A stretch of 64,000 nucleotides of DNA from NCBI GenBank assembly GCA_017991415.1, contig JAGOQR010000001.1:405992-469991 (forward strand), given 5' to 3'. This DNA is from Candidatus Magasanikiibacteriota bacterium. GTDB taxonomy: Bacteria > Patescibacteriota > Patescibacteriia > Magasanikbacterales > GWA2-37-8. Each line of letters opens with the position of its first letter. Positions within the stretch are counted from its first letter, which is position 1. Below, one piece after another: positions 16,789 through 17,846 of this stretch. The translations under genes were made by a program, and so were the position numbers. The notes under the pieces were generated by a model that worked only from the letters and a program-made list of their open reading frames with translations, was not told the DNA's origin and did not search any database.

Positions 16789-16796
16789 TTTCCTTG

Positions 16797-16955
16797 ATGA
16801 GTGGAAAAACTGCTGACCACACCCACCACCGCAACGTCGTCAACACGATTTTCAGCCACAAAGTGCGCCGCACTGTTTTCTGCGGCATACTCCTCGCGAT
16901 CCCCGTCGTAGCCGTTGCCCAGAAGGTCATCTCTGCAATCAAGGAGTGCTTCTAG
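16797..16955 (+). CDS. candidate leaderless small membrane peptide (52 aa) in the GC-rich island
   Basis: ATG at 16797 directly after the -10; peptide MSGKTADHTHHRNVVNTIFSHKVRRTVFCGILLAIPVVAVAQKVISAIKECF with a C-terminal TM helix; GC ~58% against ~38% background. An antisense 92-aa ORF (16707..16985) competes. Confidence 0.25.
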   Translation: MSGKTADHTHHRNVVNTIFSHKVRRTVFCGILLAIPVVAVAQKVISAIKECF

Positions 16956-17191
16956 CGTAGCCCAAGGACACGACCCGTCGTCCATCAGCTCAAGCCAACA
17001 CTCTCACGTCCATCGCGGACAACCTGCTCAACACGCTGCTCGACGTGTCGCACAGGCGCTCTTCTACCCCATCACTTCGAGCCCCTAACAAAGATACCCC
17101 GAGAGAATCGAGGTATTTTTGTTTTATTCTTTATATCTGGCACATAGGCATCATCTTGACTTTTTAGCTCGCGTCCAGTAAACTGCTGTCT

Positions 17192-17377
17192 ATGCGAAAA
17201 AAAGCCATCGTCCTTTCACTACTTATCGTAGCGGCGCTTGCCGCCTACGACAGACTCCGCTTCGGGAGTTTCCGACCCGAAGTGCACGAGGTCACGACAC
17301 CTCAAGAGTCCCTGCCCCGCATCTGGAGCAGCTTCATCTCGGTCATGCCCAGCGGCGCGACCATGAGCCAGCGCTAG
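17192..17377 (+). CDS. candidate small membrane peptide (61 aa), Hok/type-I-toxin-like topology
   Basis: Upstream TTGACT-17-TAAACT, then 7 nt to the ATG. Peptide MRKKAIVLSLLIVAALAAYDRL... (N-terminal TM, charged tail). GC-rich segment. Confidence 0.25.
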   Translation: MRKKAIVLSLLIVAALAAYDRLRFGSFRPEVHEVTTPQESLPRIWSSFISVMPSGATMSQR

Positions 17378-17846
17378 AGCGAGCAAACTTGTGCTGCTCG
17401 ACACAAAAAAAACGACCAACCCTCGAGCAAAAATAAAAACTCCCGACTCCTCGGAAGTTTTTATTTTTTACTTGGATACTTATAAATTTTAATTACCTTT
17501 ATTCATCTAGCACTTTCTCTCTTTACTCTATCAATAGAGTAACTTAGAAAAATTATAAAATCTCGGCATCTGTATACTACAGCTGAGCCTGAACACAAGT
17601 TCAAAATTAAAATTTAAACAGATCAATACTTTTTGTATTTATTTATTTTTTTAAAAAAACTATCACCTGTGCATAACTTTCACTTTTACTATTCACAATT
17701 TAAAAAAAACATTCTATAATAAACATGTCGAGAAAAATTTTTACAGCAATGCTTGTCTTGTAAAAATTACTTCAATAAATTTTTTCTTTCCTCGCGAGTA
17801 GAAAAAATTTATTTCTAACTTTAAAAAATGAGAGGAGGTGCACAAT

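Follow-up and report, generated by a model that had tools for sequence, protein, structure and literature searches.

We analysed a 64,000-nucleotide (nt) stretch of a Candidatus Magasanikiibacteriota genome (contig JAGOQR010000001.1, positions 405,992 to 469,991; hereafter the window, numbered from its first nucleotide) that contains a GC-rich island with two small transcription units, here called module 1 and module 2. On the plus strand, the genes for tRNA-Lys(ctt) (16514-16589) and tRNA-Arg(tcg) (16594-16666), identified with ARAGORN and Rfam, are followed at 16680-16708 by an intrinsic terminator made up of an A-tract, a hairpin and a T-tract, with a perfect 12-nt inverted repeat (I3). The order rnc-tRNA-Lys-tRNA-Arg, in which rnc encodes RNase III, is the upstream anchor of the locus and was the same in more than 20 related loci. 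Beyond this anchor, positions 16,790-17,470 form the most GC-rich stretch of the 64 kilobases (kb), with a GC content of 56-60% and a peak of 65%, compared with 39%. Counted in windows of 200 nt, the GC fraction was 0.565-0.58 at 16800-17099, about 0.48 at approximately 17100-17200 and 0.60 at 17200-17399, with flanks of 0.22-0.40. Counted in windows of 150 nt (mean 0.393, standard deviation [sd] 0.062), the island peaked at 0.647, which was the maximum of the 64 kb and exceeded the value for the 23S rRNA gene. This recount bore out the GC-rich island beside a tRNA cluster that had been proposed in an earlier, sequence-only reading, and GC content was not uniform.

An AT-rich spacer divides the island into two transcription units, each consisting of a sigma70-type promoter, an ATG 7-8 nt past the -10 hexamer, a small open reading frame (ORF) for a peptide with one predicted helix, and an intrinsic terminator. 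The module 1 promoter (TTGACG-17-TATAAT, 16760-16788, +) matches at 11 of 12 positions, and the module 2 promoter (TTGACT-17-TAAACT, 17156-17184, +) at 9 of 12. ORF1 (16797-16955, +) encodes 52 amino acids (aa; MSGKTADHTHHRNVVNTIFSHKVRRTVFCGILLAIPVVAVAQKVISAIKECF), with a basic N-terminus and one hydrophobic helix; its ATG lies at 16797, one codon after the TTG at which the ORF listing begins. ORF2 (17192-17377, +) encodes 61 aa (MRKKAIVLSLLIVAALAAYDRLRFGSFRPEVHEVTTPQESLPRIWSSFISVMPSGATMSQR), with an N-terminal helix that may be a signal anchor or a signal peptide, followed by a tail of about 40 aa. Both ORFs are predicted to be leaderless. The sequence-only reading had described both promoters and both ORFs as two separate modules for small one-helix peptides, and we found them as described. 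It had not mentioned the terminators, which lie at 17087-17125 (+) in module 1 (AACAAAGAUACCCCGAG...UCGAGGUAUUUUUGUUUU; helix 5 of the covariation model described below, 91.5% paired, with 5 covarying pairs) and at 17429-17469 (+) in module 2 (inverted repeat I2, 18 nt, 94% complementary, also seen in the predicted fold).

The RNase III protein encoded next to the tRNA pair is 100% identical to a recorded protein of a Candidatus Magasanikbacteria metagenome-assembled genome, encoded on an 831-kb contig. To compare the island with its relatives, we scanned a genome collection for this protein, which yielded 72 loci, nearly all from Magasanikbacteria or Patescibacteria metagenome-assembled genomes; further loci came from a pattern scan of metagenomes and from contigs with genes for homologues of RNase III or ORF2 (individual loci are given L numbers). 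With a conserved leader downstream of the island as the pattern, the metagenome scan returned 8 loci only. The rnc-tRNA-Lys-tRNA-Arg synteny was present in nearly all of the 23 loci scanned for tRNAs, and the same units occupied the same place, directly downstream of it, in about 14 related Candidatus Magasanikbacteria genomes. Because blastn of the island against the 72 loci gave partial matches only (approximately 70-85%, in 3' parts), homology was traced by synteny, protein and structure. From tRNA-Arg to the conserved downstream promoter and leader, the content of the locus varied. Both modules were present in the window, L094, L100, L002, L003, L080/L095 and L093, and module 1 alone in L005, L008 and L013; in L099, module 2 was accompanied by just the 3' end of module 1, at the contig edge. 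L007, L010 and L080 carried modules together with extra cargo, L007 having both modules and L010 a variant with two small ORFs. Other genes only were found in L051, L077 and L081, and the site was empty, with about 160 nt of AT-rich sequence, in L004 and L070. The comparison indicates that the site is a variable-cargo hotspot and that the modules are widely shared syntenic residents of one clade.

A promoter scan of the region detected 10 promoter-like sites in 2.5 kb, compared with 5.2 ± 2.2 in shuffled sequences. A lone promoter match is therefore weak evidence; promoters and open frames are individually cheap in this DNA, and the case must therefore rest on comparison with relatives. Stronger evidence comes from the conservation of both promoters and of their distance to the ATG. 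The module 1 promoter was retained as TTGACG-16/17-TATAAT in L002, L003, L080, L093, L094, L100 and L013. For module 2, TTGAYT-17-TAAACT or TTGAYT-17-TAAGCT, then 7 nt and the ATG, was retained in L002, L003, L092, L093, L094 and L100, and in L080 the -10 hexamer was TATACT, at the same 7-nt distance. In module 1, the ATG lies 8 nt past the -10 hexamer, a spacing kept in the window, L094, L100, L002, L003, L080 and L013, and 7 nt past it in module 2, a spacing kept in the window, L094, L100, L002, L003, L080, L092 and L093. The closeness of the ATG to the -10 hexamer and the retention of this spacing in at least seven lineages support the earlier suggestion of leaderless ORFs; the mRNAs would be leaderless or nearly so in most lineages.

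ORF2 counterparts ranged from 39 to 66 aa across lineages. Conserved in their alignment are M-x-K, a stretch of about 15 hydrophobic residues, and the motifs R-[FY]-G-x-[FY]-x-P-x-V-x-E and W-x-x-F-x-x-x-M-P; its insertions and deletions preserve the frame. With ORF2 as the query, phmmer recovered its counterparts in L002 (E = 5e-6) and L003 (E = 2e-5) from 16,034 six-frame segments; homologues were thus visible by protein search, although the DNA itself gave only fragmentary matches of about 70%. Among 5.8 billion proteins, a profile search found four unnamed homologues of 63-66 aa (P0001-P0004), and an exhaustive HMMER search of 1.84 billion representatives added P0126 and P0129 to the family and no other credible member. 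The family had about 8 distinct members in these libraries of 5.8 and 1.8 billion proteins, and all those whose contig carries flanking genes lay in this syntenic locus. An exact look-up found no record of the ORF2 sequence itself, and searches of Pfam, NCBIfam and PADLOC gave no significant match for 10 module peptides. The NG86 dN/dS values for ORF2 were 0.22-0.88 and did not exceed 0.63 in 14 out of 15 pairs. Between the window and L094, the ratio of nonsynonymous to synonymous differences (pN/pS) was 0.30 in the ORF2 frame (p = 0.0002), compared with 1.1 and 2.1 in the other two sense frames; the sole antisense frame with a low ratio was the one that shares wobble positions with ORF2, and it was interrupted by stops. 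AlphaFold2 (AF2) placed helices at residues 2-25 and, in a short segment, 40-50, with low confidence (pLDDT 63).

ORF1 evolved rapidly. Across lineages it encodes 25-52 aa, always with a promoter-proximal ATG, a K/R-rich N-terminus and then a hydrophobic stretch of 13-18 residues. L094 and L100 contain in-frame homologues, and pN/pS was 0.35-0.58 among these two and the window, with 0.35 for L094 versus L100 (p = 0.0003, the best p value) and 0.50 for the window versus L094 (p = 0.036). For the counterparts of 25-35 aa in L002, L003, L080, L005, L008, L013 and L007, dN/dS was 0.15-0.48, including NG86 values of 0.15-0.17 among L002, L003 and L080. A C-terminal Cys or lipobox, considered as a feature of ORF1, was not kept in L094, L100, L005 or L008. 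The ratios for the two ORFs (0.15-0.9) are typical of coding sequence and, for ORF2, frame-specific; both proteins changed 10-20 times faster than RNase III.

The antisense ORFs reported in the sequence-only reading do exist (92 and 66 aa), but they lost their value as evidence, since all six frames were largely open in every relative and open frames alone are therefore meaningless here. Long open frames on both strands might also be expected of a remnant of one larger pseudogenised gene. However, Pfam matched none of the alternative or antisense frames, the island contains two internal promoter-terminator units separated by an AT-rich spacer, and this organisation was kept across lineages, so that we give this origin almost no credence.

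The same openness of all six frames across the modules would fit purely non-coding structured RNAs, with the ORFs as by-products of stop-poor, GC-rich sequence. Gene callers indeed skipped the ORFs or fused their frames: no gene was called in the L094 island, and P0126 is a spurious 187-aa frame fusion across both modules of one relative. Moreover, the best-conserved DNA of module 1 was its last ~110 nt, containing the 3' element described below, and not ORF1, and GC-rich intergenic regions of AT-rich genomes are enriched for structured non-coding RNAs (PMC6429828, PMC11109978). By contrast, the frame-specific synonymous excess, the protein-level homology of ORF2 with its conserved motifs and frame-keeping indels, the start codon at a fixed distance from the -10 hexamer or behind a Shine-Dalgarno (SD) sequence (in L005, L008, L007 and L010), and a peptide architecture consistent across divergent sequences all argue for translation. 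We consider a wholly non-coding identity decidedly improbable. Structured RNA, which the sequence-only reading had offered as its fallback, accounts for the 3' part of each module, which is conserved and covarying, and not for the ORF parts, which show a coding signature.

In module 1, the 3' region comprises, in order, a hairpin (P1), a long hairpin (P2), a linker of 10-30 nt, the hexamer UCGAGC, an A-rich run and the terminator. P1 (GUCC-AUCGC-GGAC, 17008-17020, +) was found in module 1 only; three of its four pairs covaried and 98% of cells were paired. P2 (17023-17056, +) has the loop CUGCUCGA, in which the hexamer GCUCGA (17038-17043) would be the 5' arm of a pseudoknot, with the complementary UCGAGC at 17077-17082 (+) as its 3' arm. 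The module 2 element begins 3-20 nt past the stop codon, depending on the lineage. In the window it has a short hairpin, UUGUG-CUGCUCGA-CACAA (17389-17406, +), with the same loop hexamer at 17396-17401, and a UCGAGC 3' arm at 17423-17428 (+), located by pattern scan and constrained folds. The pattern GCTCGRC-N8-38-YCGAGC occurred twice in the window, both times in the island, compared with 0.02 occurrences expected.

The sequence of the P2 stem varied widely by lineage yet always paired (for example, CAACACG/CGUGU, AUACAAC/GUUGUAU, UUCAACA/UGUUGAA, GACAGG/CCUGUC, GAUGUG/CACAUC and GUGGAAG/CUUCCAC), with changes on both sides in 10 out of 12 pairs, and the loop ended in GCUCGA abutting the 3' arm. 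Constrained folds produced the same topology in 18 instances despite very different stems, and the predicted H-type loops were feasible (L1, 2-7 nt; L2, 0-1 nt; L3, 10-30 nt). The two arms of the pseudoknot stem, S2, were complementary at 6 out of 6 positions in 17 of the 18 instances, including a compensatory change from A:U to G:C (GCUCGG/CCGAGC) in L008 and in module 1 of L007 and L099. The stretches CAACC and GGCCAACC of the conserved transcript were predicted to be single-stranded. We tested covariation on a 14-row, model-based alignment, one row of which was false, using 500 shuffles and slid-partner controls. Changes on both sides were found in 19 pairs, compared with 10.8 ± 1.9 in the shuffles, none of which reached 19 (0/500), and the covariation score was 0.288, compared with 0.04-0.08 with slid partners. 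This covariation supports a predicted H-type pseudoknot, formed by GCUCGA and UCGAGC, just before the terminator.

In its predicted architecture of stem 1, short loop, abutting stem 2 and long loop 3, the element resembles known H-type pseudoknots (the preQ1-I and SAM-II aptamers, and viral pseudoknots of 3' untranslated regions [UTRs] and recoding sites), and it directly precedes an intrinsic terminator, as in transcriptional OFF riboswitches. It differs in that it lies downstream of the ORF, not in a 5' UTR, with no downstream gene on the transcript and no evident alternative antiterminator pairing, and it has no Rfam family match.

Rfam gave no match to the element at the gathering score and nothing meaningful at E <= 10 across 16400-18000; low-scoring matches to rimP, Phe_leader and ohsC were terminator-driven noise, and the remaining matches were tRNAs only. 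The true matches of our covariance model, R1, were the modules only. Most of its other matches were a tRNA followed by an A-tract/T-tract terminator, or a bare terminator, and one was a minus-strand inverted repeat in L007; we rejected them all on inspection. Most of these false positives were caused by A-tract/T-tract terminators after tRNA genes (for example, L043 5968-6068, L059 5902-6005 and L021 2461-2548); terminators of this lineage typically consist of an A-tract, a hairpin and a T-tract (ACAAAAA-stem-TTTTTGTTT) and so look bidirectional. Occurrences of GCTCGRC...YCGAGC in L029, L047, L048, L052 and L073 lay inside coding regions or were palindromes and were also discarded. In module 2 of the L002 type, the linker between the pseudoknot arms contains a perfect SD-like AAGGAGG without a start codon downstream (L002 6572-6580, L003 6607-6614, L080 5283-5290, and also L092 and L093). 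We did not accept this sequence as part of the core motif, as it is missing from the window, L094, L100, L007 and L010.

The GC content at third codon positions (GC3) was 0.73 for ORF1 and 0.74 for ORF2, compared with 0.30 ± 0.04 and a maximum of 0.46 for the 53 long ORFs of the window. Across relatives, module GC3 was 0.54-0.76, with 0.73-0.76 in the window and L094. Both GC and GC3 are thus far beyond the range of the genome, and the GC enrichment directly downstream of two tRNA genes had led the sequence-only reading to suggest horizontally acquired DNA at a tRNA hotspot. The composition is indeed atypical of the host, as in an acquired islet (GC 0.56-0.65 versus 0.39), the cargo of the site differs among relatives down to the empty sites of L004 and L070, and L014 carries an unrelated gene of 60-74% GC between the two tRNAs. 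However, about 14 lineages carry the modules at this site, and the RNase III genes of these lineages are saturated at synonymous sites (pS 0.70-0.83 between the window and relatives other than L094); the 3' element nonetheless aligns across them. Between the window and L094, the closest pair, pS was 0.45 for RNase III, 0.40 for ORF1 and 0.38 for ORF2, and pN was 0.011, 0.20 and 0.12, respectively; the neutral divergence of the modules therefore appears equal to that of rnc, and only their protein constraint is weaker. Because synonymous divergence matches that of rnc, the modules are old residents and not recent imports.

The search for traces of transfer pointed the same way. We found no integrase or mobility gene in the island (small ORFs only), no att-like direct repeat at the far border that would copy the tRNA 3' end (A/T-rich low-complexity repeats only), no plasmid or phage match to the modules and no match to a high-GC donor. 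The promoters and spacers are AT-rich and native-looking, and the few ORF2-family members in the protein libraries lie, where flanked, in the syntenic locus. Furthermore, foreign DNA of such age should have drifted to the AT-rich composition of the host, which indicates that the GC content has been maintained. Recent acquisition is thus largely refuted and, in our estimation, very unlikely; the comparisons instead indicate a long-resident, vertically inherited island. A GC-rich island beside a tRNA gene is not by itself evidence of horizontal transfer, because the modules keep their deviant codon usage in the long term. Work on GC-rich intergenic regions (GC-IGRs) likewise holds that such islands flag RNA or small ORF (sORF) genes rather than horizontal transfer (PMC6429828, PMC8632094, PMC11109978). 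When we compared folding with synonymous-codon shuffles, 16 out of 16 transcripts folded slightly better than the shuffles (z from -0.3 to -3.2), and module 2 had z = -5.3 against dinucleotide shuffles.

The sequence-only reading had also likened the peptides to Hok/Ldr-type toxins. In that case, the modules would be type I toxin-antitoxin-like loci in which the ORF1 peptide, and perhaps the ORF2 peptide, damages the membrane and is checked by an RNA antitoxin or by the fold of its own mRNA; in the manner of hok and aapA, the 3' element would then be either the target of the antitoxin or a switch that couples translation to processing. Type I families are defined by a small hydrophobic protein and a repressing small RNA (sRNA) (PMC2887945, PMC8594479), and the modules match the peptide part of this definition: the ORF1 peptides (25-52 aa) combine a basic N-terminus with one hydrophobic helix, and ORF2 peptides have 61-66 aa with an N-terminal helix at residues 2-25. 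As in Hok/Sok, Ldr/Rdl, AapA/IsoA and Fst/RNAII (PMC2887945, PMC8594479), the units are tandem and free-standing, occupy an intergenic region of variable content, differ in presence among close relatives, and produce GC-rich mRNAs that are predicted to be strongly structured. Peptide turnover was also very fast: between L005 and L008, pN was 0.27 for ORF1 and 0.007 for RNase III, which is compatible with toxins and equally with any weakly constrained membrane peptide.

By contrast, the regulatory part of a type I system was not found in the 64 kb. On the minus strand, the promoter scan detected no promoter-like site within the modules or next to them, and inspection of the sequences of relatives showed none that was conserved. 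No complementary stretch longer than 13 nt outside A/T runs was present within the 64 kb that were searched of an 831-kb contig. Start-region sequestration of the hok/aapA type was not found in 11 transcripts: the unpaired probability of nt 1-12, which include the AUG, was 0.37-0.75, which differed from shuffled controls by no more than about 1.5 sd and showed no consistent decrease. None of the 10 peptides matched a known toxin family (Hok, Ldr, Fst, TisB, Ibs, ShoB and others) in Pfam, NCBIfam or PADLOC, and the conserved, mostly hydrophilic tail of about 40 aa in ORF2 is atypical of a pore-forming toxin. The modules also differ from type I systems in that their conserved RNA is a predicted 3' pseudoknot and not a 5'-3' fold-back or an antisense target. 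The likeness to Hok and Ldr therefore comes down to small size and hydrophobicity, the type I assignment is unsupported, and we consider toxin-antitoxin function unlikely. A leaderless bacteriocin was also considered and dropped, as no transporter or immunity gene lies nearby.

Taking the anatomy, conservation, coding signature, RNA covariation and vertical inheritance of the modules together, we interpret the island with moderate confidence as two adjacent, independently transcribed small-protein genes that are specific to one clade of Candidatus Magasanikbacteria, within the Patescibacteria or candidate phyla radiation (CPR), and that have pseudoknotted 3' regions. Transcription would start at or within 1-2 nt of the AUG, and each small ORF would yield a single-helix membrane or secreted peptide that inserts into or crosses the membrane and acts in or at it. 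A conserved structured 3' region and then an intrinsic terminator would close each unit. The high GC content, including GC3, may be held by selection on the transcript, for an RNA that is compact and stable and perhaps resists nucleases or is translated slowly, and not by foreign origin. The shared pseudoknot may act in cis as a 3'-UTR element for mRNA stability, 3'-end processing or translation; alternatively, it may be released as a 3'-UTR-derived sRNA.

Several observations weigh against parts of this interpretation. The leaderless call was made from the promoter-ATG spacing, and lack of a leader does not define these genes, since the versions in L005, L008, L007 and L010 have leaders with an SD sequence. 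ORF1 varies greatly and is short, and the antisense frame that shares its wobble positions, open in the window and L094, gives a pN/pS of 0.48; because this frame scores equally, the strand assignment of ORF1 relies on the promoter, the terminator and the peptide features. On the RNA side, 88% of cells paired in the covariation test compared with 78.6% in shuffles, in an alignment that was fitted to the model, which inflates pairing. Stem S2 is nearly invariant and has one covarying position only, possibly reflecting one or two events. In addition, module 2 of L099 has a plain long hairpin in place of the pseudoknot, and the enclosing stem in module 2 of the L002 type has just 3 base pairs. 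The excess of structure over synonymous shuffles is modest, and retention of GC for RNA structure stays an inference.

The kinds of gene and RNA involved, small membrane-protein genes and structured 3' UTRs, are known. Like the small membrane proteins of bacteria (in E. coli, 50 aa or fewer) and the sORFs of GC-IGR surveys (PMC11109978), the modules have their own promoters and terminators, and each of their peptides (25-66 aa) contains one hydrophobic helix. Also as in those classes, they occupy a long intergenic region that is GC-rich within an AT-rich genome, and gene finders overlook or mis-call them. They differ in having a GC3 more than 10 sd above the genome mean, mostly leaderless mRNAs (as predicted), a predicted pseudoknotted 3'-UTR element common to two unrelated peptides, and no homology to named families. 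Three features appear to be undescribed, namely the pseudoknot motif, its association with two small ORFs that are unrelated to each other, and the long retention, in a CPR lineage, of a codon usage that departs from the genome mean by more than 10 sd: we found nothing relevant in the literature, the database proteins are unnamed, and neither Rfam nor Pfam has an entry.

We tentatively suggest, from sequence comparison, that the GCUCGA/UCGAGC pseudoknot and terminator could constitute a new class of functional RNA elements located in the 3' UTRs of CPR bacteria and shared by unrelated, mostly leaderless peptide genes with selected extreme GC content. If so, the transcripts would be dual-function RNAs (a peptide and a structured regulatory RNA), or the element would be a common post-transcriptional handle for a small-peptide regulon. 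To our knowledge, CPR organisms lack most known sRNA machinery; we also know of no cultured CPR/Patescibacteria and of very little work on their regulatory RNAs and small proteins. Control of the stability or translation of leaderless mRNAs by the 3' element would be a new post-transcriptional mechanism. The locus provides a comparative case of small-protein genes missed or mangled by standard gene callers, a conserved, predicted pseudoknotted RNA motif absent from Rfam, and tiny genes whose codon usage has long stayed more than 10 sd away from that of the average gene in the genome. Its general impact is moderate, given that the clade is narrow and that the roles of the peptides and the element are inferred.

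Upstream of module 1, 22-30 nt before its -35 hexamer, the motif AAGTTATCCAC (16727-16738, +) matches a DnaA box (consensus TTATCCACA) at 8 of 9 positions, as a DnaA-box scan showed. It is conserved in 8 lineages (the window, L094, L100, L002, L003, L080, L005 and L008) and is possibly a transcription-factor site. An inverted copy resembling it (AAAGTTATGCACAG on the minus strand) lies at 17665-17678 (-), upstream of the promoter for a Lys-rich peptide, and the two copies may be sites for a shared regulator. A replication origin (oriC) at these DnaA-box-like motifs was rejected, as GC skew was negative throughout the window, without a switch.

Downstream of the island, 17660-17955 is a non-coding stretch (including CTGTGCATAACTTT...) that was near-identical across relatives and was kept even in L004 and L070, which have no modules. 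Its TTCACA-17-TATAAT promoter (17692-17720) precedes a leader of roughly 100 nt that begins with ATGTCGAGAAAAATTTTTACAGCAATGCTTGTCTTGTAAAA; next come a strong SD sequence, a tiny Lys-rich ORF (MAAKKKAKKAKKVAKKKTTKKRR, 17848-17918) and a terminator with a 12-base-pair stem at 17925-17952. The stretch had no Rfam match and may be a conserved leader or sRNA.

Cargo at the site in other genomes included the L014 gene at 3875-4887, which is lipoprotein-like and has Pro/Asp repeats, a P-type ATPase (L010 6323-9043), a 282-aa ORF (L007 7604-8452), a plus-strand ORF of about 290 aa (L051 2990-3850) and a recurring minus-strand gene of approximately 200-229 aa (L080 5400-6150, L081 7080-7690 and L095 4758-5447, all -). 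L007 also has a long inverted repeat (ccatgttaaat...atttaacatgg, 8826-8945) between its modules, without a counterpart in the window. Most public contigs with modules (L001, L083-L093, L099 and L100) were 0.5-2 kb long and broken at or near the tRNA pair or the island, and L001 stopped 52 nt past rnc. These breaks suggest that strains differ or that coverage is problematic here, and either would also account for the poor annotation of the locus.

Elsewhere in the window, the 23S rRNA gene (26636-29861, -) exceeds the model by about 300 nt and carries a group I intron at 27564-27773 (Rfam, 51.3 bits). A 5S rRNA gene lies at 26421-26527 (-), and no 16S rRNA gene was reported within the 64 kb. 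The only other comparable GC peak, at 61,876-62,576, was unrelated to the island and corresponds to the Gly-rich part of a 1,371-aa ORF (59872-63987, -). This ORF has long low-complexity stretches rich in Gly, Ser and Thr, with GGGGGGG runs, and probably encodes a large surface protein.

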